Source: an uncultured delta proteobacterium
GTDB lineage: Bacteria > Desulfobacterota > Desulfobacteria > Desulfobacterales > Desulfosalsimonadaceae
DNA: 64,000 bases
NCBI GenBank assembly: GCA_963826785.1
Contig: CAWGYD010000001.1
Location: 512,001 to 576,000, forward strand
Direction: 5' to 3'
The notes under the pieces: generated by a model
Told to the model about the DNA's origin: nothing
Database searches by the model: none
What the model saw: the letters and a program-made list of their open reading frames with translations, nothing else
Made by a program: the position numbers and the translations under genes
Part shown: one piece after another, positions 8,262 to 34,626 of the stretch
Layout of the letters: every line of letters starts with the position of its first letter
How positions within the stretch are numbered: the first letter of the stretch is position 1

Positions 8262-9676
8262 CCGAATCCCTCCTCTCCCTGAATGTCGAGCATGTCTGCA
8301 TCCTCAGGTGTTTTCTTGACCGGGAGCACGAACCGGTCCGGGTACTTGGCAATGGCCAGCAATTTGTACATCTCCTTCGCATCTGTTTCCGTCAGGCCGG
8401 TCTGTTCAAGGCCCCCCGCATCGGCCCGGCCGTCCACCTCCATGCCCCGCATGTATTGGCGCAGCGCCATCAGCCGCTTCAGGGACAACCGGACCGGGGT
8501 CTCGTCACCGGCGGCCAGGAGATTGGCCAGGTATTTTACCGGGATGCGCATGGCATCGATCACCTCATCCGGTGTCGCCGCATCGGAAATCCCGCCTTTT
8601 ACCGGGCTCATGGGCGGCACGTACCAGACCATGGGCAGGGTCCTGAACTCCGGGTGCAGCGGCAGGGCCAGCCGCCAGGTTTTAATCAATCGAAACACCG
8701 GCGACCGGCGGGCCGCTTCCAGGTAACCCGGGGGGATCCCCTGTTTTTCCGCGGCCTGCATCACTTCTGCATCACTCGGGTCCAGGATCAGATCCAGGTG
8801 CGCCGGGTAGATCTGCCCGGGGTCTTTCACTGCGGCGGCTTGACCGATCCGGTCCGCATCATAGAGGAGGACGCCCACATAGCGGATGCGGCCCACGCAC
8901 GATTTGGCGCACAGGGTGGTCTCCCCGTTTTCCACCCGGGGATAGCAGAAGATGCATTTTTCAGAGGTCCCCCGCTTCCAGTTGAAATAGACCTTCTTGT
9001 AGGGGCACCCGGACACGCAGTACCGCCACCCCCGGCACCGGGCCTGGTCCACCAGGACGATGCCGTCCTCGTCGCGCTTGTACAGCGCACCGGACGGGCA
9101 GGAGGCCACGCACCCGGGGTTGAGGCAGTGTTCGCACAGCCGGGGCAGCCAGAACATGAACACCCGCTCAAATTCCAGGTAAGCCTTGGCGTCGATCCCG
9201 TCGAAATTGACGTCCCCGCCGCCGGTTTCCACCGTCCCGGCCAGGTCGTCTTCCCAGTTGGGTCCCCACTTGATGCGCATGTGTTTTTTCGTGATCACCG
9301 AATGGGGGCGGATGGCCGGCTGGTGCTTTTTCCGGGGGCTGTCGGTCAGATGCTGGTAGTTATAGTCCCAGGGTTCATAGTAATCGTCGATGGCAGGCAG
9401 ATCGGGGTTGTTGAAGATGCGGGCCAGTTTGTAGAAGCGGCTGCCGGCCTTCAAACGGAGCCGCCCGTTTTTCTCCTCCCATCCGCCCCGGTAGATCGCC
9501 TGGTTTTCCCATTTTTTGGGATACCCGATTCCCGGCTTGGTTTCCACGTTGTTGAACCAGATGTACTCGGCCCCTTCCCGGCGGGTCCACACGTTCTTGC
9601 AGGGGAGGCTGCAGGTGTGGCATCCGATGCACTTGTCCAGGTTCAACACCATGGCGGTCTGCACCTTAATCTTCAT
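8255..9676 (-). CDS. narH: respiratory nitrate reductase beta subunit
   Basis: LNLDKCIGCHTCS.PCKNVW, WFNNVETKPG.GYP, LPRLCEHCLNPGCVASCP, CRGWRYCVSGCPYKK and LPLHPEFRTLPMVWYVPP. Confidence 0.97.
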   Translation of the reverse strand: MKIKVQTAMVLNLDKCIGCHTCSLPCKNVWTRREGAEYIWFNNVETKPGIGYPKKWENQAIYRGGWEEKNGRLRLKAGSRFYKLARIFNNPDLPAIDDYYEPWDYNYQHLTDSPRKKHQPAIRPHSVITKKHMRIKWGPNWEDDLAGTVETGGGDVNFDGIDAKAYLEFERVFMFWLPRLCEHCLNPGCVASCPSGALYKRDEDGIVLVDQARCRGWRYCVSGCPYKKVYFNWKRGTSEKCIFCYPRVENGETTLCAKSCVGRIRYVGVLLYDADRIGQAAAVKDPGQIYPAHLDLILDPSDAEVMQAAEKQGIPPGYLEAARRSPVFRLIKTWRLALPLHPEFRTLPMVWYVPPMSPVKGGISDAATPDEVIDAMRIPVKYLANLLAAGDETPVRLSLKRLMALRQYMRGMEVDGRADAGGLEQTGLTETDAKEMYKLLAIAKYPDRFVLPVKKTPEDADMLDIQGEEGFGW

Positions 9677-12600
9677 ACCAGTCCACCTCCCCGGCCTTTT
9701 TCACGATGATCACCTCGTCACGCTGGGCCCCGGTGGGGCCGTAATAGTTGAACCCGTAGCTGAACTGCGCATATCCGCCGATCATCTGGGTGGGCTTGAT
9801 CATGATCCGGGTCACGCTGTTGTGGGTGCCGCCCCGCTGGCCGGAGCGCTTCGACCCCGGCGTGTTGATCAGCCGTTCCTGGGCGTGGTACATGAACGCT
9901 TTTCCCCTGGGGATGCGGTGGCTGACCACCGCCTTGGCCATGACCACGCCGTTGACGTTGAAGCATTCGATCCAGTCGTTGTCGGCCACATCGATGGCGG
10001 CGGCATCCTCGCTGTTGATCCAGACCGCCTCGCCCCCCCGGAACAGGGTCAGCATCAGGAGGGTATCCGAGTAGGTGGAGTGGATCGACCACTTGGAATG
10101 GGGGGTGAGGTAGTTTAAGACGATATATTTTCCGCTCTCCCGGATGCCGGCGGTGGACCCCATGGCCCGGGTGTCCAGCGGCGGCTTGTACACGGGCAGG
10201 CTTTCCCCGAAATCGACCATCCAGGGGTGGTCCTGGTAAAACTGGGCCCGGCCCGTCAGGGTGCGAAAAGGGAGTTTCTGCTCGATATTGATGACAAAAG
10301 GGGAATATCTCCGGTTTTCCGCCTCGATGCCGCTCCAGGTGGGGGAGGTGAGGATCGCGCGCGGCTGGGCGGTGATGTCGGAAAAGGTGATCCGGTCGCC
10401 TTGCCGCTCGGCGCTGAGATGGGAAAGGGACAGCCCGCTGGTCTTTTCCACGCCGTGCCACGATTTGACCGAGGTCTTCCCGTTGGTCTCCGGGGCCATG
10501 GCTAAAATCACCTGCGCCGCGGCCTTGCCGGTATCGAGCCGGGGCATGCCGAAGCTGACCCCCGGTGCGGTGACCGTGCCGAGTTCATCCTTCAATGCCG
10601 CGTATTCGTCATCGGCCTTCCAGGAAACCCCCTTGGCCCCCATCCCTTTTTCGGCGCAGAGCGGCCCTAAAGCCGTATACATGTTGTAGGTGTTGGGGTA
10701 GTCCCGGTTCACCACGGTGAGGTTGGGCATGGTTTTTCCGGGGACGGGATCGCACTCCCCCTTTTTCCAGTCCCGGATTTCGGGCTGGGCGATTTCGCCC
10801 GGGGTGTCATGGGAAAGCGGTGTGGCCACCAGGTCTTTTTCCACCCCCAGATGCCCGGGGGCCAGCCGGGAGAACTTTTCGGCCAGGGTCTTGAATTGGT
10901 CCCAGTTGGTTTTGGATTCCCATGGCGGGTCGATGGCCGGGTTGAAGGGGTGGATGAACGGGTGCAGGTCGGTGGTGCTCAGGTCGTGCATCTCGTACCA
11001 GGAGGCGGCCGGCAGGACCACGTCGGCATACAGGGCCGAGGTGGACATGCGGATTTCAGATGTCACCAGCAGATCGAGTTTTCCCTCCGGGGCGGTCTCC
11101 GGCCACTCGATCTCCTGGGTGCGGTGCGCGCTTTCTTCATTGTTCACCGCGTTTTCCACCCCCAGCAGGTGCTTTAAGAAATATTCGTGCCCCTTGCCGC
11201 TGGCGCCCAGGACGTTGGCCCGCCAGAAAAACATCACCCGGGGAAAATTCTCCGGGCTGTCCGGGGCCTCGGCGGCAAACCGTAAGCTGCCCGATTTAAG
11301 TTGCCGGGTCACCTGCTCAATGATGGCATCATCGGTTTTTGCGCCGTCTTTTTGGGCCTGGCGGCACAGATCGATGGGGTTGCAGTCAAACTGGGGAAAC
11401 GATGGGAGCCAGCCCAGGCGCGCTGCCACGGCATTGTAGTCGGCCGGGTGCCGGTACAGGGGTGCGCGGCGCGCAGGGGGGGAAAGGGTGGTGGCATCCA
11501 GCGGGTCGTAGCGCCACTGGCCGGTGGCGAAATAAAAAAAAGAGGTCCCGTTCTGCTGCCGGGCCGGACGAACCCAGTCCAGGCCGAAGGCAACCTGCAT
11601 CCAAGAGGCGATGGGCCGGATCTTTTCCTGCCCCACGTAATGGGCCCACCCGCCGCCGTTGACCCCCTGGCAGCCGCACAGGGTGGTCAGGTTCAGAATG
11701 GCCCGGTAGGTCATGTCGCTGTGAAACCAATGGTTGGTTCCCGCGCCAACGAAAATCATGGCCCGGCCCCGGGTTTTCTCGGCGGTTTGGGCAAACTCCC
11801 GGGCCACCCGGACCGCATCTTTCGCGGCAACCCCGGTGATGGACTCCTGCCAGGCCGGAGTATACGGCTTTTTATCCTCATACCCGGAAGGATAACCGTC
11901 AAGATCGGCATCATCAGGAAAGCCGGAGGCGCCCGCTTTTGGACGGATGCCCAGGTTGGCCGCCATCAGGTCAAATACCGTGGCCACCCGGATATCGCCC
12001 CGGTCGGTCCGGACGGTTTTCACCGGCACGCACCCGGTCTTTTCTTCGATGCCGGAAAGGGCGAACACGGGAAATTTCAGATGCACCCACCCGTCGTTTT
12101 CCTCGGCAAAACTCAACAACGGGTCGATTGGCACCCCTGTGTCCGGGTGTTCGAGTTTTAAATTCCAGCGCCCCTCTTCGTTCCACCGGAATCCGATGCT
12201 GCCGTTGGGGACCACCGGCGATGCGGTATTCGCATCGAATATCACGGTTTTCCATTCGGCATGGTTGTCTTTTCGTCCCAGGTCTGCGGCCCGAAGGAAC
12301 CGGCCGGCTGCGTCGCCGCCCGTTTCGGCCGACTCGATCTTCACCAGGAAGGGAAGGTCCGTGTAGGTCTTGGCATACGGATAAAAGTAGTCGGATTGCC
12401 GGTCGATGAAAAATTCCTTGAAGACCACATGGGTCATGGCCATGGCCAGGGCCCCGTCCGTGCCGGCCTTGGCCGGCAGCCAGGTGTCGGCAAATTTCAC
12501 GTATTCCGCATAATCCGGTGAGACGGCCGCCACCTTCGTCCCCCGGTACCGGGCCTCGGTGTAAAAATGGGCGTCGGGGGTCCGGGTCTGGGGAAGATTG

Positions 12601-13391
12601 GTTCCCCACACGATCATGTAGTCGGCCCCGAACCAGTCCGCGCTCTCGGGCACGTCGGTCTGGTCCCCCCAGATCTGGGGCGAGGCCGGCGGCAGGTCGG
12701 CATACCAGTCATAGAAGCTGAGCATGGCCCCGCCGATGAGCGACAGGAACCGGGCGCCCGAGGCGTAGCAGACCATGGACATGGCCGGTATGGGGGTAAA
12801 TCCGAAGATCCGGTCCGGCCCGTAGGTCTTGATGGTGTGGATCAGCGACGCGGCCACCAGGGTGGCGGCCTCATCCCAGGAAACCCTGACCAGTCCGCCC
12901 TTGCCTCGGGCCTTCTGGTACAGCCGGATATTTTCCCGGTCGGCGGCAATGTGCGCCCAGGCCTCCACCGGGTCCGGGTGCGCCGCCAGGGCGGTGCGCC
13001 ACAGATTCAGAAGCTCCGAACGGATGTAGGGGTACTTGATCCGCACCGGGCTGTAAACATACCAGGAAAACGTGGTTCCCCGGGGGCAGCCCCGGGGTTC
13101 GTGGTCGGGCAGGGCCGCGCCGCAGCCCGGATAATCGGTCGCCTGCAGCTCCCAGACGATCACCCCGTTCTTGACATGGACCTCCCAGGAGCACGAACCG
13201 GTGCAGTTCACCCCGTGGGTGGATCGGACCTTTTTATCGAACTGCCAGCGGCTGCGGTAAAACGATTCCCATTCCCGCTGATCACAGCGCACCTCGGCCA
13301 GGCCATCGGCCAGATTTTCTTTTCTGCACGCGCGGTCTTTTCCGCGGGGGCGCAGGAACCGTAGTCTCGAAAATAAAGGGGTTCGCCTCAT
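9666..13391 (-). CDS. narG: respiratory nitrate reductase alpha subunit
   Basis: RSTHGVNCTGSCSW, EPRGCPRG, SFYDWYADLPPASPQ.WG.QTDVPES and GGYAQFSYGFNYYG; start chosen at ATG 13391 after GGAGG. Confidence 0.97.
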   Translation of the reverse strand: MRRTPLFSRLRFLRPRGKDRACRKENLADGLAEVRCDQREWESFYRSRWQFDKKVRSTHGVNCTGSCSWEVHVKNGVIVWELQATDYPGCGAALPDHEPRGCPRGTTFSWYVYSPVRIKYPYIRSELLNLWRTALAAHPDPVEAWAHIAADRENIRLYQKARGKGGLVRVSWDEAATLVAASLIHTIKTYGPDRIFGFTPIPAMSMVCYASGARFLSLIGGAMLSFYDWYADLPPASPQIWGDQTDVPESADWFGADYMIVWGTNLPQTRTPDAHFYTEARYRGTKVAAVSPDYAEYVKFADTWLPAKAGTDGALAMAMTHVVFKEFFIDRQSDYFYPYAKTYTDLPFLVKIESAETGGDAAGRFLRAADLGRKDNHAEWKTVIFDANTASPVVPNGSIGFRWNEEGRWNLKLEHPDTGVPIDPLLSFAEENDGWVHLKFPVFALSGIEEKTGCVPVKTVRTDRGDIRVATVFDLMAANLGIRPKAGASGFPDDADLDGYPSGYEDKKPYTPAWQESITGVAAKDAVRVAREFAQTAEKTRGRAMIFVGAGTNHWFHSDMTYRAILNLTTLCGCQGVNGGGWAHYVGQEKIRPIASWMQVAFGLDWVRPARQQNGTSFFYFATGQWRYDPLDATTLSPPARRAPLYRHPADYNAVAARLGWLPSFPQFDCNPIDLCRQAQKDGAKTDDAIIEQVTRQLKSGSLRFAAEAPDSPENFPRVMFFWRANVLGASGKGHEYFLKHLLGVENAVNNEESAHRTQEIEWPETAPEGKLDLLVTSEIRMSTSALYADVVLPAASWYEMHDLSTTDLHPFIHPFNPAIDPPWESKTNWDQFKTLAEKFSRLAPGHLGVEKDLVATPLSHDTPGEIAQPEIRDWKKGECDPVPGKTMPNLTVVNRDYPNTYNMYTALGPLCAEKGMGAKGVSWKADDEYAALKDELGTVTAPGVSFGMPRLDTGKAAAQVILAMAPETNGKTSVKSWHGVEKTSGLSLSHLSAERQGDRITFSDITAQPRAILTSPTWSGIEAENRRYSPFVINIEQKLPFRTLTGRAQFYQDHPWMVDFGESLPVYKPPLDTRAMGSTAGIRESGKYIVLNYLTPHSKWSIHSTYSDTLLMLTLFRGGEAVWINSEDAAAIDVADNDWIECFNVNGVVMAKAVVSHRIPRGKAFMYHAQERLINTPGSKRSGQRGGTHNSVTRIMIKPTQMIGGYAQFSYGFNYYGPTGAQRDEVIIVKKAGEVDWYED

Positions 13392-13644
13392 CCGGCCTCC
13401 GTGATGCGGTTTTTGATTGCGGCATTTTGATAACAAAGAATGCGGTTTGCAAAAAAAGTTGTCAAACCGGAGAGAAGAGGCGTAGTTTATTTGATCGGAT
13501 CATAAATATCTTGTTCCCGGTTGTCTTTGCGCGAAGAACTTTTTGAAAGTGGATAAAAAGAAGCAAAGCGAATCGACATCATAACCTTTTTTACTTCTGG
13601 CTCCTTTTTCGATCCGTGGGAATTGGAAACGCAGGGAAAACATC

Positions 13645-16583: not shown

Positions 16584-16675
16584 CCCCTCGAGGGGGGGGC
16601 AGGGGGGGTGTTCGGACCGGCGAAAAAAACTTATTTTAAACCCTTGTCGAGTTGAGGCCCTTGAAAGGAGCGACC

Positions 16676-17825
16676 ATGCCGTTTGATTTCTTCCTGATGT
16701 TGAAGATGCTGTTCAAGTCCGTGGTCTCCTACCGGGCCACCGGTTTGAAATTTACCCCCCAGCGGATCGCCTTCACCCTCTTTTTCCCGGTGATGTTTTT
16801 GTTCCAGGAACTGATCACCTGGGCCTGTCTGCTGCTCGATGACCAGATCTACCCCGACTACCGGAAGGTCGAGGTGAACCGTCCCCTGTTCATCGTGGGA
16901 TTTCCCCGAAGCGGAACCACTTACCTGCACCGGCTCATCGACAGTGATCCGCAGTTCACCGCGTTGAAGATGTGGGAGTTGATGTTTGCTCCCTCGATTC
17001 TTCAGAAGAAGTTTTTTCTGGCCCTGGGCAGACTGGACCGCAGAATCGGACATCCCCTTTACCGGATGGTGTTGAAATTCGAAGACAAAGCGTTTGCCGG
17101 GTCCCGCAAGATGCACCGGATCAGCCATTTCGAGGCGGAAGAAGACGAACTTATCCTGCTTCACATCTTTTCTTCGGCATTTCTGTTTTTCATGTTTCCT
17201 TTTGACGAGATGAAGCGGTTCACGCATTTCGACACGGATGTGCCCGCCCGCCGGCGCCGGGCGATTATGCGCTTTCTATAAAAAATGCGTACAGCGGCAT
17301 TTGTTCATGTTCGGCCCGGAAAAGATCTTTTTATCCAAGAACCCGGCTGGCAGCGGTAAAATCGAATCCCTCTATGAGACGTTTCCCGATGCGAAAATCG
17401 TGTGCATGGTGCGAAACCCGCTGGATGCCGTGCCCTCTGCCATCAGCTGGATGTCCTACGGGTTCAATACGTTCAATACCGATGAAAAACCCTACCAGAC
17501 AAAGCGGATCATGTCCGCCATTTCCCACTGGTACGCCTATCCCCTCATGCGGCTGGATTTAAGGGATGCGCATCAGCAGGCGATAAAAATCTACGATGCG
17601 CTGGTTTCCGATCCCGCCCCCTTTGTCAGAGGTCTCTATGAGCGGTTCGGGTATACTCTCTCCGGTGATTTTGAGGTGTTTTTAGCCAAAGAATCGGAAA
17701 AAGCGAAAAGTTATAAAAGCGGCCACGACTATTCCCTTGATCAGTTCGGCCTGACCCGTGAGCAGGTCGTGTCTGATTTTGCGCCGGTTTTTGAGCGGTT
17801 TGGTTTTCCGGAAAGGCAGGTTTAG
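16676..17825 (+). pseudogene. sulfotransferase-family protein, split by a frameshift near 17275 (pseudogene or sequence error)
   Basis: PLFIVGFPRSGTTYLHRL (5'-PSB loop) in the first ORF; LSKNP and VRNPLDAVPSAIS in the second; removing one T in CGCTTTCTATAAA restores RFYKKCVQRH. Confidence 0.75.
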
Positions 17826-21916: not shown

Positions 21917-24900
21917 TCATCCCGCGTATTCCGCCCGTTCGATGAGCTCCATCTGGATGTCTTTGTTGAGCTGCGTGAAGTAGGCGTTGTAGCCGGAGAT
22001 CCGAACCATGAGGTGGCGGTAGTTTTCCGGGTGGGCCATGGCGTCTTTCAAGGTTTCCGAATTGACCACGTTGAACTGCAGCTGCATCCCGCCCATGCCG
22101 AAATAGGTTTTTACGTAGGCGCACAGGGTCTCCACGCTCTTTTCCCGGGTGTCGTTCGGATCCAGGTTGAACTTGACGTTAAAGGCGATGTTGTTGTCCA
22201 TGGTGTCTGGGTCCAGGGCGGCCACATCCCTTAAGTTGTCCAGGAAGGTTTTGGAGGCCAGGGGATGCGGGGTGAGGCCGGGGGTGAAGGCTTTGCCGAA
22301 GACCCGGCCCGAGGGGAGCGCCCCGGACAGCGATCCGTAGGCCACGTGCTGGGACATGGACCAGAATCCGGTGGTGTAGGGGCCGCCCCGGAAGTTTTTG
22401 TGTTCCCGGTGGATGTCGTGCACCAGGGCGGTCACCCGCCGGGCCATTTCAAGCGCCCCGGGATCTCCGGAGCCGAATTTCTTCACCCGGGTTGCCGCCT
22501 GGGCCTGCAGGGCGGGGTCGTTTTCGAAATTTTCGTCGATGGCTGCTTTCAGGCGGGAAAAGGGGACGCGCTTTTCATCATAGACCAGCTGTTTGATCAC
22601 CAGGAGGGAATCGATCACGTCGGACAGGCCGATGTTGGAGGTCCCCGATGAATTGTACACGGCGCCGCCCGCGGTGACATCGAGGCCCTTTTCGATGGTC
22701 CCCTGCATCAGGGCGCTCAAAAAAGGGGTGGGCCGCTTCTCGGAATGGACTTTGGCCAGCAGGTTGTTGAAATCCACGGCCTGGCCGATGAGAAATCTTA
22801 ATTGCTGTTCATAGGCGGCAAAGAAGGATTCAAAGTCGGGGAAAACGTCATCTTCGATGCTGCCGGTTTTCGGCCCCGGGGCCCAGCGCATCAGCGGATG
22901 GCAGCCGTCATGCAGGGCCATTTCCAGAGGCGCCACCAGGTTGAACAGGATGGCCCCGGTGTGTCCCATGTGCTTTCCGGAAATGGTGGGTTCCACGCAC
23001 CCGGTGGCCGACCAGTTCCGGATATCTTCTTCGGGATAGCCGTGCTGGGAAAGGGAGGCGAACACCGCCCTGTCGTTGTGCAGGGACGGGGTGCCGGCGG
23101 TGATGATGTTCACCTCGCACAGCCGCTTCAGATAGGTTTCGCTGTTGATCTCCGGGTGATGCCGGGCGTTTACGTTGACATCGCGCAGGGTCAGCATTTC
23201 CGCGGCTTTGAGCATGATGTAGGTCATGTCGTTCACCGCGTCCCTGCCGTCGGGCGTCACCCCGCCAATGGTGAGGGCCTGGGTGGAGGAGGCCCCCCCG
23301 AACAGGTAGTTGCCGATGTCCGGGGACAGGGGGAGATGGTCTGAAAAGCGCAGGAACAGGCAGCCGATCAGGTCGACGGCGTGTTTGATGCAGACCTTCT
23401 TTTCCGCATCGGTGGCGCATTTTTCCATGTCGGTTTCAAAATAAGGCTGGAGCCACTGGTCCAGCCGGCCGAACGACATGCCGGTGTTGGCGTTTTCCAT
23501 GTTGACGGCGATCCAGGTGAGGTTTAGCACATTGACCGCCTCGTCCAAGGTTAACGCGGGGTTTGCCGGCACGTTTTGAAGGATTTCGGCCAGGCGGAGA
23601 AGCTGCGCCCGCTGTTTCGGATCCTTTTCCGACCCGGCTTGCATTTCGGCCGCACCCCCAAGGCTTTTTGCATAGGCGTCCAACCCGTCCAGGGCAATCC
23701 GCATGGCCGAAAGCGTATTCTTTCCCTCGGCAGACAGGCCTGTATCGGCCAGGCGAGCCTCGATTTCTTTTCTTATCCCCGTGGTTCCCTTTTTCAGAAT
23801 GGTTGGAAAATCCGGTATGGTGTGGGATATTCCCACCGATTTCCAGACAAAGTAGGGGACCCATCGCTCCTCGATTTTCTGGCACAGGGGATAGCCGTTT
23901 TCCACGCGCACCCAGTTCCTGAAATTGCGCTCGGCCCAATAGGGAAAGATATCGAAGTGGAGTTTTTCCACCGTCTTTTCGGATATGGCATAGGGGTTTA
24001 AGATCCGGTGCGCGATGGAGCCGAGCTCCCCCCACAGCATGGTCCCCTGGGCCTCGGGATAGACCACCACCCCGATGGTGGGATTTGCGGTGGTGGTCCC
24101 GGCGATCAGGTCATTTTCCCGGATCAGCGGGGCCTTTTTCGCCATGATGTGCGCAAATACCCTGGCCTGCCGAAGGATCGGGTTCCAGGGGGCGCCGCCT
24201 ACGTCTGTTTCAAATCCGTTTTGCCGGCACCAGGCGGTAAGCAGTTCGGCGCGCTCGGGGCAGATCTCGGGCTTGATGCCAAAATAGGCGTCCCGGAAGG
24301 CCTTGAGCCGGGGAAAGTCATCCAGGCTGTATTCGGACAGGTAGGGATCGGGCAGATATTTGACCCCGGGATCAGTGCCCGGACATTTCATCCGGTATCG
24401 CCGCCGCTCCTTTAGAATGCCGGCCAGTCCGGCCGGGCACCCGGAATATGTCTTTTTACGCTCGGCCACATCCGTCCGGTGGCGTTTTTGAAGCATCTTC
24501 AAATGCTTGTTTCCCATGAGCAGGGAGACCAGAAAATTGAACAGCTGCAGGTAGGAGAGGTTGCCTTCCAGGATCATCCGGTTTTTCAGGATGAGGTTTA
24601 ACACCTCGTTGGGCGTGACCCGCAGCATTTCCAGAAGGGCCGCCTCGTCCTTGAACTTCAGCAGGGCATCGGCATCTTCCGGGATGGTTTTGCTCACCGA
24701 CATCTTTCCGTTTGAAAACACCGCGGCCAGGCGGACGCTGCGGGTCTCCGTGACAAAACCGATGGTAAAGTCAAGCGGCCCGTCCTTTACCGTCAGATAG
24801 CGGTTCAGGGCCGGGCGCTTGTTGAAAAGCAGGGCCATAAGTGACAGCAGCGCATGGGACATGCCGTTAAAGACCATTCCCTTGCTTTTTCGGGCAAACG

Positions 24901-24958
24901 GGATTCCCGGAGTGACCAGAAGGGTCTGGTTGGCCTGCAGGATCGGTGTGCGTTTCAT
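21917..24958 (-). CDS. glycyl radical enzyme (PFL2/eliminase-like) with N-terminal SCP2-like extension
   Basis: C-terminal LMVRISGY glycyl loop, single-Cys loop SATGCVEP, SFGRLDQWL and QLQFNV; 1013 aa, about 200 aa longer than a typical GRE; RBS GGAGG. Confidence 0.88.
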   Translation of the reverse strand: MKRTPILQANQTLLVTPGIPFARKSKGMVFNGMSHALLSLMALLFNKRPALNRYLTVKDGPLDFTIGFVTETRSVRLAAVFSNGKMSVSKTIPEDADALLKFKDEAALLEMLRVTPNEVLNLILKNRMILEGNLSYLQLFNFLVSLLMGNKHLKMLQKRHRTDVAERKKTYSGCPAGLAGILKERRRYRMKCPGTDPGVKYLPDPYLSEYSLDDFPRLKAFRDAYFGIKPEICPERAELLTAWCRQNGFETDVGGAPWNPILRQARVFAHIMAKKAPLIRENDLIAGTTTANPTIGVVVYPEAQGTMLWGELGSIAHRILNPYAISEKTVEKLHFDIFPYWAERNFRNWVRVENGYPLCQKIEERWVPYFVWKSVGISHTIPDFPTILKKGTTGIRKEIEARLADTGLSAEGKNTLSAMRIALDGLDAYAKSLGGAAEMQAGSEKDPKQRAQLLRLAEILQNVPANPALTLDEAVNVLNLTWIAVNMENANTGMSFGRLDQWLQPYFETDMEKCATDAEKKVCIKHAVDLIGCLFLRFSDHLPLSPDIGNYLFGGASSTQALTIGGVTPDGRDAVNDMTYIMLKAAEMLTLRDVNVNARHHPEINSETYLKRLCEVNIITAGTPSLHNDRAVFASLSQHGYPEEDIRNWSATGCVEPTISGKHMGHTGAILFNLVAPLEMALHDGCHPLMRWAPGPKTGSIEDDVFPDFESFFAAYEQQLRFLIGQAVDFNNLLAKVHSEKRPTPFLSALMQGTIEKGLDVTAGGAVYNSSGTSNIGLSDVIDSLLVIKQLVYDEKRVPFSRLKAAIDENFENDPALQAQAATRVKKFGSGDPGALEMARRVTALVHDIHREHKNFRGGPYTTGFWSMSQHVAYGSLSGALPSGRVFGKAFTPGLTPHPLASKTFLDNLRDVAALDPDTMDNNIAFNVKFNLDPNDTREKSVETLCAYVKTYFGMGGMQLQFNVVNSETLKDAMAHPENYRHLMVRISGYNAYFTQLNKDIQMELIERAEYAG

Positions 24959-25024
24959 GGCGATGCCTCCAAAAGGGGTCGGTCAGGGGGTTAAGAAATC
25001 CTGGATGACGAAACGGCCAGCCGG

Positions 25025-25060
25025 TCGTTAAACTTAACGTCGTTCAATTGACATGTCAAT
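25025..25060 (-). promoter_or_regulatory. putative sigma70 promoter of the GRE gene overlapped by two palindromes
   Basis: Minus strand TTGACA-17 bp-TAAGTT; palindromes ATTGACATGTCAAT (25047-25060) and CGTTAA-AC-TTAACG (25026-25039). Confidence 0.5.
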
Positions 25061-26093: not shown

Positions 26094-27314
26094 ATGAATA
26101 ATCAATCGAACAAGGCTGCAGGCTATCGGTGGGTGGTGCTTCTGGTATTTTCAGTCATCAATGCGGTCATGCAGATCCAGTGGCTGACTTTTGCGCCGGT
26201 GGCGCGGGAAGCCCGGCTGGTTTACGGCGTGACGGCCCTGCAGATCGATTTTCTCTCCATGATCTTCATGGGGGTGTTTATCGTGATATGCCTTCCGGCT
26301 TCTTACATCATCGATACTTTCGGCATTCGGATCGGCGTCGGAATCGGCGCTCTGCTGATCGGCATATTCGGTGTTCTCAAGGGAATATACGCAAATGACT
26401 ACACCATGGTGTTGATTTCCCAGACCGGCCTTGCCGTTGCCCAGCCGTTTATTTTAAATGCCGTCACCAAGGTCGCCGGCCGCTGGTTCCCGGTGGAAGA
26501 AAGGGCGACCGCCGTCGGAATCGCAACCCTTTCCCAGTTCATCGGCATCATCGTGGCCATGATCGCCACCCCGCTGCTGGTGACGCAGAATGCGGACGGG
26601 AACTACCAGCTCGGGCATATGCTTTTATTCTACGGCATCATTTCCGCAGCCAGTGCAGTCCTGCTCCTGATATTTTTAAAAGAGCCGCCGGTGGAATCTT
26701 TGGATCAGGAAATCATCGATGGACGGATCGACGTGTTTGCCGGTGCGCTGCACATCCTGCGGCACAGGGACATGCGCCTGATGCTGCTGCTTTTTTTTCT
26801 GGGTCTGGGGATGTTCAATGCCATCAGCACCTGCATTGACCAGATCTGCCAGATCAAGGGACTGACCACCGAGCAAACCGGCATGGTAGGGGGGATGATG
26901 CTGATTGCGGGGATTTTCGGTGCGCTCATCCTGCCGGTCCTGTCCGATAAGCTCCGCAAGCGGAAAGCGTTTATCGTGGCGGGGATATTTCTGGCCACGC
27001 CCGGATTGGCCGGCCTGACTTTTGCGAGCGGGTATATCGTCCTGCTTTTGTCTTCTTTTGTTCTCGGGTTTTTTCTGCTGGGCGCATGCGCGCCGGTGGG
27101 CTTTCAATATTGCGCGGAAATCAGCTTCCCTGCGCCGGAATCGATCTCCCAGGGGCTCATTCTGCTTGCGGGTCAGATTTCCGGCGTGTTGTTCATCTAT
27201 GGGATGAACAAATTGGGAATGATCTTCTCCCTGACGGTTTTTGTCGGATTTTCAATCATTGGGGTCATTCTGAGCGCGATGGTCAAAGAATCGCCGCTGA
27301 TCCTGACGCCATAA
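26094..27314 (+). CDS. MFS transporter (FLVCR/SLC49-like)
   Basis: YRWVVLL, QWLTFAP, AVAQPFILN..TK.A..WFP..ERA.A; about 12 TM helices. Confidence 0.85.
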   Translation: MNNQSNKAAGYRWVVLLVFSVINAVMQIQWLTFAPVAREARLVYGVTALQIDFLSMIFMGVFIVICLPASYIIDTFGIRIGVGIGALLIGIFGVLKGIYANDYTMVLISQTGLAVAQPFILNAVTKVAGRWFPVEERATAVGIATLSQFIGIIVAMIATPLLVTQNADGNYQLGHMLLFYGIISAASAVLLLIFLKEPPVESLDQEIIDGRIDVFAGALHILRHRDMRLMLLLFFLGLGMFNAISTCIDQICQIKGLTTEQTGMVGGMMLIAGIFGALILPVLSDKLRKRKAFIVAGIFLATPGLAGLTFASGYIVLLLSSFVLGFFLLGACAPVGFQYCAEISFPAPESISQGLILLAGQISGVLFIYGMNKLGMIFSLTVFVGFSIIGVILSAMVKESPLILTP

Positions 27315-28508: not shown

Positions 28509-31500
28509 TTATACCGGCCGGACCGCTTCCGCATTCAGGGTGACCGCCCCCCAGTTTTCATCGACTTTGCCCGAGAGCAGAAACGGCCGGCCGTAATCCA
28601 GGATATGGCAGAAGCGATTGTAGATTTTGGGAAAGAGGACGGTTTCCACGATGCCGGTCTCATCCTCGAAGGTGACGAACTTCATGGGGTCGCCCTTGGC
28701 AGTGAGCACGGTCTTGCCGGTGATGAGCCACCCGGCGAATTGCACGCGGCGGCCCAGGTGTTTGGGGATGGCATCGGCCCTGGTAAGATTCAGCGGTTTT
28801 AAGCGGTCTTCAAACAGGGTCATGGGGTGGCAGGCACATAGAAACCCCAGCACGGCAAATTCGTACCGCAGCCGGTTTTGGGGGTCGTCTTCGGGGAGAT
28901 CGGGCATAGCCGCGGGGGCGCAATCGGAAAACAAGGACAGGTTGGTGTTTTTTGGGGCGCGCGCTTTTTGCCATTTTGAAAACTGCCACAGGAGTGCGGC
29001 CCGGTGTTTCCGAGATGAAAACCGGTCCAGGGCGCCGGAGTGAATCAGGGCCCTGGCTTCGGTCTCATCGGGCCGGACCCGCGCAAAGAAATCATCCGCG
29101 CTTTTAAACGCCTCTTTTTCCCGTTCCTCGATGATGCGCTCCCGGCAGGCCGCGGAGAGATCTTTAATGGACAGAAACCCCACCCGCAGGGTGCGGTCAC
29201 AGCCCATCCAGCGGGTGCGGCTTTGCTGAACATCCGGTCCCAGGATGGTGATCCCCAAACGCCGGGCCTCGGACACGTAGGCAAACGCGGAGTAAAACCC
29301 GCCCTGGTTGCTGATGACCGCGGCCATGAACTCGGCCGGGAAATGGGTCTTCAGATACGCGGCCTGGAAGGAGACCCGGGCATAGGAGGCGCTGTGGGGC
29401 TTGCAGAAGGAATAGCCGTTAAAGCTCATGATCATCTTCCAGATCTGTTTGATCTGATGGTCACTCACCCCACGGGCGCGGGCCCCGGCAACAAACCGGC
29501 CCAGGTAGTCGCGCAGCTGGTGCTCCCGGTCTTTTTTCGACATGACCTTGCGCAGGCCGTCGGCTTCCGCGTGGGAAAACCCGGCCAGCGCCACGGCCAC
29601 CCGGGAGACATCCTCCTGGTAGACCATCAGGCCGAACGTCTCGGAAAGCACGTCGTTTAACAGGGGGTGGATCGCCTCCCAGGCGCCGCCGTGGAGCCGG
29701 CGAAGATACTCCTGGATCACGTCGTTGGCCGCCGGCCGGATAATGGAGGAGTGGATGACCAGGTGCTCGAAGTCGCCCACCCCGGACTTTAGCTGCAAAA
29801 GCCGCGTGGCCGGGCTTTCGATGTAGAAGCACCCCATGGTCCCGCCCCTGGCCAGCGACTCCTGGGTGGCAAAATCGTCTTCGGGCGCCCAGCGGCGCTC
29901 ATCGAGTTCGCGCCCGTTTTCGCGCAAATTGGAAATGGCATCCCGGATCACCCCCAGGCTGCGGTTGCCTAAAAGATCGATCTTGACCAGGCCGGCGTCC
30001 TCGGCGGCATCCTTTTCCCACTGGATGATGGGGACCCCCTTGGGTGCGGTCTGCACCGGCACATAGGTGTCGATGGGATTGGGCGTGATCACCACCCCGC
30101 CGGGATGGACGGAAAGATGCCGGGGCAGGCCGATGATCCGCTGGGCGATGGACAGGATCTCCGGCCAGGGGTGGGGAAAATCGATCCCCCGCATCTGCGG
30201 CAGGGCGGCGATCCGTTCCTGAAAGTCCTGGTCGGATTCCTCCATGCGCCACAGCCAGGGAAGGCGTTTTGCCACCTGGTTGATCTCGGCATCGGTCAGG
30301 CCGAAGACTCTCGCGGTCTCGCGCACGGCCATGCGGGGCTGAAAGCAGACATGGTTTGAAACGAGTGCGGCCCGGCCCGCAAATTTCTGCAATACGCCCG
30401 CAATCACGTGATCGCGCTCGTCCCAGGCAAAGTCCACGTCGATATCCGGCGGATCGGTGCGGCCGGGGTTTAAAAACCGCTCGAAATAGAGGTTGTGCTT
30501 GACCGGGCAGACATTGGTGATCCCCAGGCAGTAGGCCACCAGCGAGGCCGCCCCCGATCCCCGGCCGCAGGTGCGGGGGCTTCTGGCCACAATGTCGGCC
30601 ACGATGAGAAAATAGGCATCAAACCCCATCTGGGAAATGATGGCCAGTTCATGCTCCAGCCGGTCGGCCACGGTTTCCGATATCTCGCCGTAGCGTTTGC
30701 GGGCCCCCGTATAGGCGGCCTGGCGCAGGTGGGTTGCGGCATGCTTTGGATCGCCCGTTTCATAGGGCGGCATGACAATGCCGAAATCCGGCCGGGAAAA
30801 AGTGATCCGTTCGGCCAGTTTACGGGTGTTCTCGATGGCCTCGGGGCAGACGGAAAAGCGCTTTTCGTATTCGGCCGGGCCGGCCAGATACGCATCGGGG
30901 GGCGCGGCGTCCCCGGGCCGGAGGCGGGAGATCGCCGTATTTTGATCGATGGCCCTCAGCACCCGATGAATGTCAATCTCTTCGGGTGCTAAAAAGAAAC
31001 TCCCCGGGGTGGCCACCAGGGGGATGCCCAGTTGCCTGGCCGTTTGCCGCAGGGGGTGGATGCCGGACACGGGTTTTCGGGGCATGGCCGCGGCCGTATC
31101 CACCCCGGCCGCATGCCAGGCGCACAGCCATTCCGGGTTGGAAGTGAGCACGATCAGGCCACGGTGAAATCGGGTGACGGCGGTCTTCAGGTCAAAACCG
31201 GCATCCCTGTGGCGGCGGGTCAGCAGTTGGCAGAGATGTCCGTACCCGACCGCGTCCTTGACCAGGCAGACGGCCCGGAAGGCGGATTGGGGATCGGTGA
31301 CCTCAGCTCCGACAACCGGCCGGATCCCTTCGCGTTCGCAGGCATTCAGAAAGGGCCACAGGCCGTAGAGGTTGTCCGTGTCGGTCAGGGCCAGCCGGTC
31401 ATAGCCGAGCCTGCGGGCATGGCGGCACAGGGCCTTGATGTCCGCAGTCCCCCACATCAGGGAGTATGCGGATCGGACGGCAAGAGGGAGTAGGCTTTTT

Positions 31501-31526
31501 TCATTCACAATCGGTCGTTTTTTCAT
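28509..31526 (-). CDS. dnaE2: error-prone DNA polymerase III alpha-like (DnaE2-type)
   Basis: GRGSGAASLVAYCLGIT, LYFERFL, PDIDVDF, KIDLLG and GYSFCKPHS; C-terminal OB fold (FVTFEDETG); start uncertain (ATG 31526 or GTG 31508). Confidence 0.9.
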   Translation of the reverse strand: MKKRPIVNEKSLLPLAVRSAYSLMWGTADIKALCRHARRLGYDRLALTDTDNLYGLWPFLNACEREGIRPVVGAEVTDPQSAFRAVCLVKDAVGYGHLCQLLTRRHRDAGFDLKTAVTRFHRGLIVLTSNPEWLCAWHAAGVDTAAAMPRKPVSGIHPLRQTARQLGIPLVATPGSFFLAPEEIDIHRVLRAIDQNTAISRLRPGDAAPPDAYLAGPAEYEKRFSVCPEAIENTRKLAERITFSRPDFGIVMPPYETGDPKHAATHLRQAAYTGARKRYGEISETVADRLEHELAIISQMGFDAYFLIVADIVARSPRTCGRGSGAASLVAYCLGITNVCPVKHNLYFERFLNPGRTDPPDIDVDFAWDERDHVIAGVLQKFAGRAALVSNHVCFQPRMAVRETARVFGLTDAEINQVAKRLPWLWRMEESDQDFQERIAALPQMRGIDFPHPWPEILSIAQRIIGLPRHLSVHPGGVVITPNPIDTYVPVQTAPKGVPIIQWEKDAAEDAGLVKIDLLGNRSLGVIRDAISNLRENGRELDERRWAPEDDFATQESLARGGTMGCFYIESPATRLLQLKSGVGDFEHLVIHSSIIRPAANDVIQEYLRRLHGGAWEAIHPLLNDVLSETFGLMVYQEDVSRVAVALAGFSHAEADGLRKVMSKKDREHQLRDYLGRFVAGARARGVSDHQIKQIWKMIMSFNGYSFCKPHSASYARVSFQAAYLKTHFPAEFMAAVISNQGGFYSAFAYVSEARRLGITILGPDVQQSRTRWMGCDRTLRVGFLSIKDLSAACRERIIEEREKEAFKSADDFFARVRPDETEARALIHSGALDRFSSRKHRAALLWQFSKWQKARAPKNTNLSLFSDCAPAAMPDLPEDDPQNRLRYEFAVLGFLCACHPMTLFEDRLKPLNLTRADAIPKHLGRRVQFAGWLITGKTVLTAKGDPMKFVTFEDETGIVETVLFPKIYNRFCHILDYGRPFLLSGKVDENWGAVTLNAEAVRPV

Positions 31527-31530
31527 CTTT

Positions 31531-32748
31531 TCATGATGCCATTGCCCGCCCCATGTGTATGCTGTCCGGGCCGAACCGATCCCGGATGCGGTCCATGGCA
31601 TTTATCATCGAGGCGCGTTTTTGAAAGATCTGTCCGGGTTCGGGGAAAAGCGCCATCTGGGCGGGCGGGAATACCGGCCGGGGGCAGGTCAGGCCGATGT
31701 GGCGCAGTCGCACCCGCCGGGTCCAGGCCTTGTACAGGATGGACCGTGCGGATTCAAACAGGGTGATATCGTCGGCCGACGGCCGGACAAGCTTTGCCTG
31801 CCCGAACCGGCGCAGTCCGTCGGAGTGGTCCAGCACGATGGAAAGCACCGCCGCCGTCTTGCCCTGCTGCCGCAGCGCGGCGCCAATCGTCTCCACCAGC
31901 AGGTATACCGCCCGTTCCACGGTGGGTACATCATTGGTGTCATTGCCGAATTCATGACCGGCGGTGACCTTCGGCGGCTTCTGCCCGGCGGGCAGCACCG
32001 GCGCGGCATCTATTCCCCGCACCGTGTCAAAGATATATCCGGCCCGGCGGCCGAAGGGGATTTCCAGCTGGGGTAGGGTCAGGCCGGCCACCTGGCGCAC
32101 CAGAGCCAGGTTGAGCTCCCGCAGCCGGGACAGGTCGGCAGGCTCGATGCCCGGGAGCAGGAAGACGGGGAGGGGGGCCAGAAAATCCGACTCCTCTCCG
32201 GCGCCCACGATGTATTCGCCTATGGGCTTGACCAGCCGGGTGGCCACCTTGGAGACCAGTTTGTTGGGGGCCACCGACCAGATGGGGGCCAGCGCCAGCC
32301 GATTCCTGATTTGCCGGTACATGCGCCAGGCCACGTCCACCGGCGGCCCGAACAGGCGGCTGGTGCCGGTCACATCGATGAAGAGATGCCCGTCGGCATC
32401 CCCCGGCTCGATCAGCGGGGAAAAGGCGAGCACTTCACCGAGCACATCGGCCATGGCCTGTTCATAGCGGGCCGGGTGGGGCGGCAGCACGGCGGCATCT
32501 TTGCAGCAGCGCAGGGCCCGCCGCAGGGGCATTGTTTTCCGCACCCCGGCCCGAAAGGCCTCTTCGCTCATGTCATACACCACCGCCCGGGCCGCTCCTT
32601 CCGGGGCGATAATCACCGGCCGGTCCTTGAGGCGGCGATCCACCAGGCGCTCCACGGCCACGGCAAAATCGGCGATGTTGAGGTGGACGACGGTGCGGGG
32701 GCGGTGCGGACGCATCCAAGCGGTGCGAGATTTTTCATTCAAAAACAT
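31531..32748 (-). CDS. Y-family polymerase homolog, likely catalytically inactive (ImuB/DinB-like)
   Basis: HLNIADFAVAVER, RPVII, S.EA.RAGV...MP, NKLVSKVA and LPV.LLPGI; clamp motif QMALF; C-terminal AMDRIRDRFG. Confidence 0.85.
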   Translation of the reverse strand: MFLNEKSRTAWMRPHRPRTVVHLNIADFAVAVERLVDRRLKDRPVIIAPEGAARAVVYDMSEEAFRAGVRKTMPLRRALRCCKDAAVLPPHPARYEQAMADVLGEVLAFSPLIEPGDADGHLFIDVTGTSRLFGPPVDVAWRMYRQIRNRLALAPIWSVAPNKLVSKVATRLVKPIGEYIVGAGEESDFLAPLPVFLLPGIEPADLSRLRELNLALVRQVAGLTLPQLEIPFGRRAGYIFDTVRGIDAAPVLPAGQKPPKVTAGHEFGNDTNDVPTVERAVYLLVETIGAALRQQGKTAAVLSIVLDHSDGLRRFGQAKLVRPSADDITLFESARSILYKAWTRRVRLRHIGLTCPRPVFPPAQMALFPEPGQIFQKRASMINAMDRIRDRFGPDSIHMGRAMAS

Positions 32749-32762
32749 AGTGCAAAGGTATT

Positions 32763-33064
32763 GGGTGATGGAATTAATGGAGTGATGGAATAATGGAATA
32801 TTGGGAGGACTGAATCGTTTGATCCATTACTCCACTATCTGTTTATCCAGTTGGCTCAAGTTGGGCTTAAACACAGCCAATTTAATCATGATACTTGGAT
32901 TCTCGCCTTCGCGGGAATGACGTAATCTTTAGTTAATGGTCATACCCGCGAAGGCGGGTATCCAGTTAAGTTGATAATTAATTTAGATGCTTGCGCCATT
33001 ACTGTGTCGAAGTGGATAACCATTTTCCATCATTCCATCATTCCATTATTCCACTCTTCCATTC
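32763..33064. repeat. inverted octamer arrays enclosing a GTCAT-type REP pair
   Basis: (GGARTRAT)n at 32763-32806, (CCATYATT)n at 33020-33064, REP arms at 32896-32921 and 32939-32964. Confidence 0.75.
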
Positions 33065-33080
33065 GTGATGTTGCGATTTG

Positions 33081-33932
33081 TCATGCATTTTCGGCCAATT
33101 TTTCATCGCTTTCCCCTTCCTTCATCAACCCCGCACTTTTCAGCAGCCGGATCATCATCTGCGCGTTTCGCGGGGCCTGGGCCCGGACATGATTGTTGAA
33201 AAACACCATGCCGGTGTCGGCCTGGCGGGCCATTTGGCCGATTCGATCGACCCAGGAGTTGAGTTCGGCATCCGTGTAATCGTAATCAAACTGTTTCTGC
33301 ATGCTGCCGGAGCGCCATCCCGCGGCATTCCGGCCGTGAAACCGGATATAGAAAAAATCCGGGCAGGTCACCACCTCAAGCGGCGGAAACAGCCCCGGAA
33401 GAGCAGGTTCATCCACCGCCGCCAGGGCGATCCTTCGCCGGGAAAGCTCGTCAAACACCCGGTCTGACGCCCAGGCGGCATGCCGGAACTCCACGGCCAC
33501 CGGCAGCCCTTCCAGTTGATCCAGCAGGGCGGCCAGGTAGAGCCGGTTTTGCCGGGAGCGGTCAAACGAGGGCGGCAGCTGCACCAGCACGGCCGCCAAT
33601 TGCCCGGCCTGGAGGAGGGGGGCGATGCCGTCCCGGAAGGCGGCCGCCTGGCTGCGCCACTGGTCCGGCTCGATCTCGTGGGTCATGGTGCGGGTGAGTT
33701 TGGCGGCAAAGGAAAAACCGGGACCGGCCATCTGCCGCATCCGTTCGATGGAGGATGCCTTGGGCATCTGGTACCAGGTATAGTTTAACTCGGTGATGTC
33801 GAACAGGCCGGCATAGTGTGCCAGCATGCGGGCCGCGGGAGTGCCCGGCGGGTAAAAGCCGGCATCGATCCATTCGGTGTAGGAATACCCGCTGGTCCCC
33901 ACCCGCAGCCGGCATGTGGATGAAAGCGTCAT
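33081..33932 (-). CDS. DUF72 (YecE-like) TIM-barrel protein
   Basis: VGTSGYSY.EW, ELNYTWYQMP, QLPPSF, AVEFRH..W, YIRFHGRN, DYDY...EL..W and FFNNH. Confidence 0.92.
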   Translation of the reverse strand: MTLSSTCRLRVGTSGYSYTEWIDAGFYPPGTPAARMLAHYAGLFDITELNYTWYQMPKASSIERMRQMAGPGFSFAAKLTRTMTHEIEPDQWRSQAAAFRDGIAPLLQAGQLAAVLVQLPPSFDRSRQNRLYLAALLDQLEGLPVAVEFRHAAWASDRVFDELSRRRIALAAVDEPALPGLFPPLEVVTCPDFFYIRFHGRNAAGWRSGSMQKQFDYDYTDAELNSWVDRIGQMARQADTGMVFFNNHVRAQAPRNAQMMIRLLKSAGLMKEGESDEKLAENA

Positions 33933-34567
33933 CTGGAGAGCCTCTGCATCACATCCGGTCCGCGGTGGATGCCGATGACCTTTCCCTGCACCAGGATTTC
34001 GTCAAAGGCGTATGATCTGGCTTCAAAGGCGGGGTTTTCCGGCTGCAGCACGATGCTCCCGGCGCGCAGAAAAAATCGTTTGACGGTGGCCTCGTCATTG
34101 CCGATCAGCGCCACCACGATTTCCCGGTCACGGGCATACTGCCGGGGTTCGCATATGGCCAGGTCCCCGTCCAGGATGCCGGCATTGATCATGGAATCCC
34201 CCTGGACCCGAAGGGCAAACAGGTTTTCGCCCTTGTACAGGTCCGAATCGACCACGATGCTTCCTTCCCATTCCTGCTGGGCATACATGGGCAGGCCCGC
34301 GGTGACCCGGCCCACCACGGGCACGTTTCGCCACCGGTGGATGCCCGCCAGCTGGCCCGGAGCGTCGATCAGGTAGATCCTGCGCCGGTAGCGCCCTTCG
34401 CGTTTGATCAGGCCCGCTTTTTCCAGGATTTTCAATGTCTGGGCCACGGCGGTGTGGCTGATGTCAAGGTCCTGGGCCGTCTGGCGCAGGGACGGTGAGG
34501 CGCCGGTATGGGCAATCTGTTCCTTGAAATAATCCAGAAGCCGTTGTTGTTTGGATGTCAAAGACAT
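33929..34567 (-). CDS. lexA: LexA repressor
   Basis: LTSKQ..LL, SPSLR HTH, VGRVTAGLP (Ala-Gly cleavage site), GDSM (Ser) and ATVKRF (Lys); ATGA overlap with DUF72. Confidence 0.93.
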   Translation of the reverse strand: MSLTSKQQRLLDYFKEQIAHTGASPSLRQTAQDLDISHTAVAQTLKILEKAGLIKREGRYRRRIYLIDAPGQLAGIHRWRNVPVVGRVTAGLPMYAQQEWEGSIVVDSDLYKGENLFALRVQGDSMINAGILDGDLAICEPRQYARDREIVVALIGNDEATVKRFFLRAGSIVLQPENPAFEARSYAFDEILVQGKVIGIHRGPDVMQRLSR

Positions 34568-34626
34568 GTGCAAGGGTCTCCTTCGTGCATGGTGATCAAT
34601 CCGGAAAAACCATAATTGCAAAAAAT

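Follow-up and report, generated by a model that had tools for sequence, protein, structure and literature searches.

The DNA considered here, the window, is a stretch of 64,000 nucleotides from an uncultured delta proteobacterium of the family Desulfosalsimonadaceae (assembly GCA_963826785.1, contig CAWGYD010000001.1, positions 512,001 to 576,000), and it contains a gene for a glycyl radical enzyme (GRE) whose N-terminus is predicted to carry an SCP2 fold. The open reading frame is intact from its ATG start (Table 1). A ten-stranded barrel with a Cys loop, followed by a C-terminal Gly loop, places the product in the pyruvate formate-lyase (PFL)-like GRE superfamily. An initial annotation, made from the letters alone, had described a GRE of 1013 amino acids with RISGY and a single-Cys GCVEP loop, and this description is borne out by the PF02901 and PF01228 domains, C654 and E656 and the glycyl residue G989. 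The best Foldseek matches of the full-length AlphaFold2 (AF2) model are propanediol and glycerol dehydratases, at a TMt of 0.91 and 27-29% identity.

Table 1. Features of the GRE locus, with positions counted from the first letter of the window
Feature	Position	Strand	Evidence or remark
SCP2-fused GRE	21917..24958	-	intact open reading frame; AF2 full model pLDDT 88, pTM 0.90
Ribosome-binding site GGAGG of the GRE gene	24966..24970	-	7 nt 5' of the ATG
SCP2-fold domain, residues ~28-150, then a long helix (134-171) and linker	24509..24877	-	family HMM matches, AlphaFold model, Foldseek, VIA-align
GRE ten-stranded barrel, PF02901, residues 217-875	22334..24310	-	Pfam; Foldseek top propanediol dehydratase 5i2g, TMt 0.91
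His379, at the glycerol dehydratase His164 / HypD His160 / CutC Asp216 position	23822..23824	-	His in 148/148 family rows
Thr559, aromatic-lid position (CutC Phe395, HypD Phe340)	23282..23284	-	Asp in 73, Thr in 61 of 148 rows
Cys loop C654-V-E656 (CxE; GCVEP)	22991..22999	-	single loop Cys
Glycyl radical domain PF01228, residues 892-995, G989 in RISGYNA	21974..22285	-	Pfam
Putative operator of the family TetR, 13-bp palindrome, core AACRNYGTT, then a degenerate second half-site	25034..25046	-	89 nt 5' of the GRE ATG
FLVCR-like (choline/ethanolamine-transporter type) major facilitator superfamily (MFS) transporter, possibly linked	26094..27314	+	FLVCR2 E 4.3e-40; 1.1 kb from the GRE

The N-terminus had been proposed to be SCP2-like over residues ~35-150. 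A Pfam search with a single N-terminus gives a sub-threshold match to PF02036 (E 0.05-0.15, 12.8-14.4 bits against a gathering threshold of 21.3), and a PDB sequence search with the single N-terminus of the window matched nothing. Across the family, 39 of 69 N-termini match PF02036 at E<=1, the best at 1.3e-5, and any other Pfam family is matched by at most two. Moreover, the AlphaFold model of residues 28-178 (pLDDT 85) retrieves UbiJ-SCP2 first in Foldseek (E 3.5e-7), followed by SCP2 domains of alkylsulfatases and by sterol carriers, and SCP2 domains fill the ten best rows of an independent VIA-align scan over 48,161 chains (Z 8.9-12.6). An SCP2 cluster also came up, at 0.77, in an Atlas feature search with the N-terminus and is treated as no more than a lead. 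By its predicted structure, then, the stretch from residue 28 to 150 is an SCP2 fold, as had been proposed, and the structure prediction suggested as a check recovers that fold rather than an unrelated one; given this fold, the domain may bind lipid. UbiJ, the alkylsulfatases SdsA1, Pisa1 and YjcS, and MFE-2 have the same fold as a fused lipid-handling module; unlike in these proteins, SCP2 is here joined to a radical enzyme.

The placement of the enzyme among GREs relies on the cut-offs of hidden Markov models (HMMs) and on printed alignments to characterised classes. It lies under every NCBIfam class cut-off, namely those for HypD (NF043068, 373 against 1100 bits), CutC (TIGR04394, 368 against 1050), the C-S lyase HpsG (NF048011, 346 against 1000) and PFL (TIGR01255, 130 against 994), and it also misses the broad PFL2-3 model (466 against 678 bits). 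Pocket residues were read from printed alignments together with the residue roles given in PMC8473560 and PMC13450708 (sections 4.2, 4.3, 5.6, 5.7 and 7), and family conservation from 148 partly redundant rows at no less than 50% identity. H379, E488, C654, E656 and T667 are invariant in these rows; K373, R365, H666, W866 and H871 are nearly so, and the Gly loop reads RISGYNA in 143. The CxE motif of the GRE 1,2-eliminases and isomerases, as that class is defined in PMC13450708 (sections 5.6-5.7), is present as C654-V-E656 in all 148, and H379 occupies the place of His164 of glycerol dehydratase (GD), the acid for the leaving hydroxyl (PMC13450708, section 5.6.1). In GRE eliminases an aromatic residue packs on the substrate, CutC F395, HypD F340 and IslA W374 being named in PMC8473560; in the printed alignment this aromatic is not kept, T559 standing in its place. 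Across the family rows position 559 is D, T, E, N or Q, with no aromatic lid; Thr559 is found in all 33 rows of the window's subtype and Asp559 in most activase-adjacent paralogues of the same bacterial family. The Thr and Asp subtypes thus differ at a site that could pair with an ammonium group.

Since the His, the CxE motif and T667 are kept while several known pocket residues and the lid are lost, 1,2-elimination in an opened pocket is the most likely activity. Eliminase-type chemistry is assigned from these residues with high confidence, and the enzyme most likely works as a GRE 1,2-eliminase outside every characterised class. This agrees with the earlier proposal of an uncharacterised eliminase-type GRE; the comparison with characterised GREs reveals no known class whose complete set of specificity residues recurs in the protein. 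As a separate observation, the catalytic Cys, Glu or His is missing or changed in four distant SCP2-GRE homologues (P0118, P0156, P0188 and P0117), the Gly loop of some being changed too; these are possibly pseudo-enzymes or enzymes of another chemistry.

GD (1R8W/1R9D) and 1,2-propanediol dehydratase (5I2G, 9RCO) have in common with the window GRE the CxE motif, the His164 position and an aromatic residue at the Tyr640 position (W866); compared with them it has 215 extra N-terminal residues bearing the SCP2 fold. Among what we take to be the pocket residues of GD beyond H164, C433 and E435, its His281, Ser282, Tyr339 and Asp447 are T492, G493, A556 and G668 and the lid aromatic is gone, so that of H164, H281, S282, Y339, D447 and Y640 only the positions of H164 and Y640 (as Trp) are kept. 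CutC (5FAU, 9F3W) is the best sequence match (E 1.3e-107), and its Thr502, Thr334 and Phe389 correspond to T667, T492 and F553, whereas Asp216, Phe395, Tyr506 and Y208 are changed to His379, Thr559, Leu671 and W372, and no bacterial microcompartment (BMC) genes were found in the whole genome, which is 88% complete. With HypD (6VXE) the His160 position and CxE are kept, and Asp278, Phe340 and Thr645 are changed to Thr492, Thr559 and Met868. Archaeoglobus fulgidus PFL2 (2F3O) has the GISH motif and the polar, lid-less loop at 553-560 in common with the enzyme; it is ~30% identical, has no SCP2 domain and differs at the beta-6 and beta-8 residues. The sulfonate anchor of the C-S lyases IslA, IseG and HpsG (Arg and Gln in beta-1, Arg in beta-8) is not kept, the residues being V375 and H379 with no Arg in 863-872, and PFL itself is excluded by a single loop Cys instead of Cys-Cys.

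The fusion is a family in its own right. A search with residues 25-215 returned 55 other proteins, every one with a GRE barrel, and the genome collection holds 79 SCP2-GRE loci from Desulfobacterales, Smithella, Spirochaetota, Bacillota, Actinomycetota and others, the hosts including long-chain lipid degraders and the cultured carrier Desulfatiferula olefinivorans. The fused form occurs in 26 of 41 relatives and in 20 of 301 genomes of the phylum (counted at E<=1e-17 to the domain profile, short stand-alone SCP2 genes excluded), and it is nearly core to this bacterial family (21/25 genomes). A tree built from 105 sequences places the window GRE in a 14-tip clade (support 1.0), no member of which has an activase within 4.5 kb; apart from the window, seven tips are flanked by 5.8 kb or more on either side, and the remainder sit on short contigs. 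The neighbouring clade has an adjacent activase in 6/6 cases, the node that joins the two being weak (0.78). An activase-less copy in genome G023 falls outside the subclade, and the G018 copy is cut by a contig end. Further, two or three diverged SCP2-GRE paralogues, their pocket residues differing, stand in tandem at three loci (L087, L041 and L057), two of them (L087 and L057) with one activase each.

How such a gene is served without a neighbouring activase can be addressed from the rest of the genome. An activase motif scan of the window detects no GRE activase. The sole radical S-adenosylmethionine (SAM) protein among 32 scanned window proteins is of the B12-binding class and is not an activase. 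No small-subunit genes lie beside the GRE, its flanks being a DNA ligase and a C-GCAxxG-C-C protein. The initial annotation had called the enzyme an orphan, and within the window, which holds no activase, small-subunit or BMC gene, it is; the genome, in contrast, has an intact family-type activase (TIGR02494) on another contig (G000:C8:203630-204544). There it forms part of a paralogous TetR-activase-GRE operon (G000:C8:202907-207853) with an operator and, 3' of it, a DUF362 gene. The TetR gene of this operon has one apparent frameshift and the GRE paralogue two, the activase being intact; 2/33 control genes are also split, and one of the breaks in the TetR and GRE genes falls at a homopolymer run.

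Surveying homologous neighbourhoods for the activase, as had been suggested, established TetR, activase and GRE as the usual arrangement of the family (at least 34 and 25 of 81 loci). All seven other genomes of the same bacterial family with an activase-less copy also hold a paralogue with an adjacent activase. With a profile built from 40 operon-linked activases, which separates the family type (at least 380 or, by a stricter line, 400 bits) from other GRE activases (at most 330 bits), the family-type activase turns up in 25 of the 26 relatives that have the fusion and in none of the 15 that lack it, the positive side of this count being partly circular because the profile includes activases from many of the counted genomes; in no case is there more than one per genome (41 relatives). 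It is also present in 27 of 29 further genomes whose locus has no adjacent activase, the two exceptions being a genome of 1.6 Mb and another whose top score is 283. The window GRE and the C8 paralogue have the same Gly loop, RISGYNA, and activase cross-reactivity is known to follow Gly-loop identity (PMC13450708, section 2.5), so the C8 activase may serve both. It is considered the likely activator of the window GRE, which would supply a concrete candidate for the activation in trans proposed earlier. The same genome encodes three further GREs (C4:15237-17618, C6:379443-381812 and C6:218450-220960), one with an adjacent activase; these too lie under all NCBIfam class cut-offs, except that one reaches the broad PFL2-3 model.

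A second link to the paralogous operons is the putative operator. The palindrome, as a rule present as two copies 14 bp apart, precedes 52 of 53 TetR genes (shuffles: mean 1.0, maximum 4), and the single TetR gene without it is not beside an SCP2-GRE. At the window locus the TetR gene is lost and the operator site kept, at the same -89 spacing as in another TetR-less locus (L043); with 123 occurrences of the core in the 4.4-Mb genome, the chance of one is ~0.6% per 230 nt. The genome has two family TetR genes, on contigs C8 and C3, which in the assembly look broken or truncated and which could act in trans on the window operator. No sigma-70 promoter above chance was found for the GRE. The C3 operon (G000:C3:168722-174650) has a family TetR with a tandem operator at its head and no GRE; several of its genes, which encode an acetoacetate-decarboxylase-like/extended short-chain dehydrogenase/reductase (SDR) fusion, an SDR and a GH3 beta-glucosidase, are apparently frameshifted.

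The partner genes of the family point towards lipids. An extended SDR, most like the HpnA, 3-beta-HSD and OleD models, recurs inside family operons, and a classical SDR resembling 3-ketodihydrosphingosine reductase (KDSR) lies inside six TetR-GRE-activase operons in six genomes, once fused to the extended SDR; of the five Atlas structure neighbours listed for it, four (rows 2-5) are 3-ketodihydrosphingosine reductases, at TM 0.93-0.94. At author-set score thresholds, as for all co-occurrence counts here, the KDSR-like gene is present (260 bits or more) in 14 of 26 relatives with the fusion, three of which supplied the profile, against 0/15 without it, one fusion-less genome having a partial 218-bit match. 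In the phylum sample (230 bits or more) the counts are 12/20 with the fusion and 12/281 without, and the genome of the window has the gene at C6:452799. Homologues of sphingosine-1-phosphate (S1P) lyase occur in 23/26 relatives with the fusion against 5/15 without. Neutral ceramidase is found in 19 of 61 chosen genomes with the family against none of 19 without it, and in 4/20 against 7/281 of the phylum sample; in four genomes 20-28 kb of unrelated genes separate it from the GRE locus.

Two S1P-lyase genes are encoded in the window's genome, each directly behind an FGGY kinase (C8:123643-126877 and C5:185083-188123); the C8 homologue matches a solved S1P lyase in the PDB at E 1.3e-194, and the kinase may be an unrecognised sphingoid-base kinase. 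The only strong PDB matches of the window MFS protein are FLVCR choline/ethanolamine transporters. Its relatives elsewhere adjoin ceramidase, kinase/aldolase or S1P-lyase genes, one ceramidase operon combining a family TetR with an MFS protein 52% identical to it; beside the GRE in other family loci no FLVCR-like MFS was seen. In two loci an aldehyde:ferredoxin oxidoreductase lies directly downstream of the GRE. Two further arrangements stand by themselves. In genome G034 the order is kinase, aldehyde:ferredoxin oxidoreductase and lyase, adjoining an FLVCR-like MFS. A cluster that recurs at L278, L285 and L294 joins an FLVCR-like MFS to an FGGY kinase, a class II aldolase and a class III aminotransferase; L278 and L285 add a ceramidase, and L278 also has a RuBisCO-like protein. 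It suggests an unexplained module of amino-polyol or sphingoid catabolism.

That the substrate is lipophilic, of whatever kind, appears very probable; as to its identity, the evidence favours a sphingolipid-derived alcohol over the alkanes or sterols that the initial annotation suggested for testing. The explanation preferred here, held tentatively and at a little under an even chance, is that the window GRE is an SCP2-fused 1,2-eliminase that strips a hydroxyl from a sphingolipid-derived long-chain vicinal diol, after activation by the C8 activase. The activase would place the radical on G989 and C654 would become the thiyl radical that takes a hydrogen from the carbinol carbon, with E656 deprotonating the hydroxyl of that carbinol and H379 protonating the leaving group on the next carbon, to give a ketone or aldehyde, the alkyl tail being held by the SCP2 domain. 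Since these organisms appear equipped with a kinase and a lyase, sphinganine itself needs no radical enzyme; the extra hydroxyl of phytosphingosine is left unsolved by the kinase-lyase route, and standard GRE chemistry would remove it in one step. Abstraction at C3-H with loss of the 4-OH would turn phytosphingosine into 3-ketosphinganine, which the KDSR-like reductase could convert to sphinganine for the kinase and S1P lyase. The breakdown of phytosphingosine yields a 2-hydroxy C16 acid, which in eukaryotes is removed by alpha-oxidation (PMC10002949). An alternative substrate would be the long-chain 1,2-diol or 2-hydroxy unit left by S1P-lyase cleavage of phytosphingosine, which would give hexadecanal, an aldehyde oxidisable by the aldehyde:ferredoxin oxidoreductase. 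The neutral Thr559 of the window's subtype fits a diol, while Asp559 of the paralogues would suit an amine-bearing substrate.

A more far-reaching version, possible and held with less assurance, would make this the first GRE eliminase family to act on membrane lipids. It would be an SCP2-fed radical dehydratase that makes 3-ketosphinganine from phytosphingosine, or an aldehyde from a long-chain 1,2-diol, and thereby supplies the missing step of oxygen-free sphingolipid degradation, with Thr and Asp paralogues dividing the substrates and sharing one activase and one TetR operator. The pathway in sediment and digester anaerobes would then run through ceramidase, GRE, KDSR-like reductase, FGGY kinase, S1P lyase and aldehyde oxidoreductase.

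Several observations weigh against the sphingolipid assignment and its supporting links. No sphingolipid gene adjoins the window GRE or any locus of its subclade, whose members adjoin acetyl-CoA synthetase and deacetylase genes. The KDSR-like gene is missing from 12/26 family-bearing relatives, and in PDB sequence searches with this SDR Tsc10 ranks 28th in one and is absent at E<=1e-40 in another. There is no PF04734 ceramidase in the window's genome, nor in 42/61 of the genomes bearing the family. The activase and KDSR-like profiles both draw in part on genomes that are counted, the negative side of the activase count being free of this circularity, and the co-occurrence counts, with their Fisher values, overstate the association because the genomes are kin and lipid degraders sharing many such genes. 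Operator sites directly upstream of GRE genes number 4/94, not above shuffles (maximum 5), which is attributed to most GREs lying behind the TetR gene. Moreover, a split transketolase, Zn-alcohol dehydrogenases, GH3 glucosidase, class II aldolase and a RuBisCO-like protein are further recurrent partners, and these would also fit small-polyol or glycoside catabolism. As for the acetyl-CoA hydrolase/synthetase/deacetylase block before the closest homologues, it was set aside as a partner: it is confined to close kin and absent at the window locus, and is therefore read as local synteny.

The alternative that survives best, although unlikely, is the dehydration or cleavage of a lipophilic alcohol from outside sphingolipid metabolism, such as a monoalkyl glycerol ether (by C-O ether cleavage, the chemistry of YbiW/PflD), a dihydroxy fatty acid, the side chain of a hopanoid or steroid polyol, or a glycolipid aglycone. 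The SCP2 fold carries many types of lipid, the hosts include degraders of long-chain lipids, the extended SDR of the operons is nearest to the HpnA, 3-beta-HSD and OleD models, a GH3 glucosidase lies under the same operator in the window's genome, and CxE GREs are known to cleave ether C-O bonds (PMC13450708, section 5.7). However, this leaves the KDSR-like reductase in six operons and the enrichment of S1P lyase and ceramidase unexplained.

A C-N lyase, deaminating a sphingoid base or another long-chain amino alcohol in the manner of CutC to a 3-hydroxy aldehyde or ketone, is somewhat less likely still. It could draw on the CutC-like Thr667 and TG loop, on CutC as the top sequence match, on the Asp that in half of the family replaces the cation-pi Phe of CutC and HypD, on the FLVCR-like transporter, and on class III aminotransferases close by in the partner clusters. 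Yet the window copy itself has Thr at 559 and His in place of CutC Asp216, and with a kinase and S1P lyase as a non-radical route for sphinganine, deamination is not needed. More improbable is a small polar polyol or amino sugar as substrate, with SCP2 serving as membrane anchor, solubility cap or docking module. The invariant Lys373 and Arg365 could indeed bind phosphate or carboxylate, the transketolase, Zn-alcohol dehydrogenase, FGGY kinase, aldolase and RuBisCO-like neighbours are of that kind, and in other GREs gamma subunits help solubility by shielding hydrophobic patches (PMC13450708, section 4.2). On the other side, every row has small residues in place of the aromatic lid that packs against a small substrate, different phyla retain the fusion, and the partner genes lean to lipids. 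Very little favours a fumarate-adding, alkylsuccinate-synthase-like enzyme with SCP2 replacing the small subunits, or a silent relic: the features common to Archaeoglobus PFL2, whose function is debated between GD and the alkylsuccinate synthase MASS (PMC13450708), and the want of an adjacent activase are outweighed by scores of E 1e-49 and 1e-65 for benzylsuccinate synthase (BSS) and MASS against 1e-107 for eliminases, by CxE and the His, by the absence of BSS/MASS small Fe-S subunit genes from the window and from the family's recurring neighbours, and, for the relic, by the intact reading frame, pocket and operator of a copy whose activase-less subclade is kept in many genomes.

To what is known of the family, the window copy adds a subclade with a shared activase, a retained operator and the kinase-lyase link. 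The eliminases and isomerases in a 2026 review of GREs all act on small polar molecules (PMC13450708, sections 5.6-5.7), and the words 'sterol', 'SCP' and 'fused' are all absent from its main text; no paper on an SCP2-fused GRE was found among the openly available papers searched, PMC12583861 and PMC13761379 having no bearing on the fusion, and no anaerobic route of sphingolipid degradation is described in the literature searched. If the hydroxyl-stripping reading is true, the chemistry of the GRE superfamily would extend to lipids, through a member equipped with its own carrier domain, an enzyme would be named for the anaerobic recycling of sphingolipids from dead biomass, and a possible biocatalyst for deoxygenating long-chain diols would be at hand. 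With a candidate activase, an operator, a TetR and a short list of substrates now named, the question is directly testable.

Among the other genes of the window, the DNA ligase, the C-GCAxxG-C-C protein and a split sulfotransferase were considered as partners and rejected, as they recur beside the GRE in none of the loci compared. The sulfotransferase-family gene (16652-17825) is split between two overlapping frames at an A6 run, which may reflect an assembly indel. Elsewhere, LexA, DUF72, a DinB-like polymerase and an error-prone DnaE2 form an SOS mutagenesis cassette (28509-34621), and an operon for a respiratory nitrate reductase with a NarG-type alpha subunit, together with an MFS transporter, occupies 5544-13436 of this Desulfobacterales-like genome's window.

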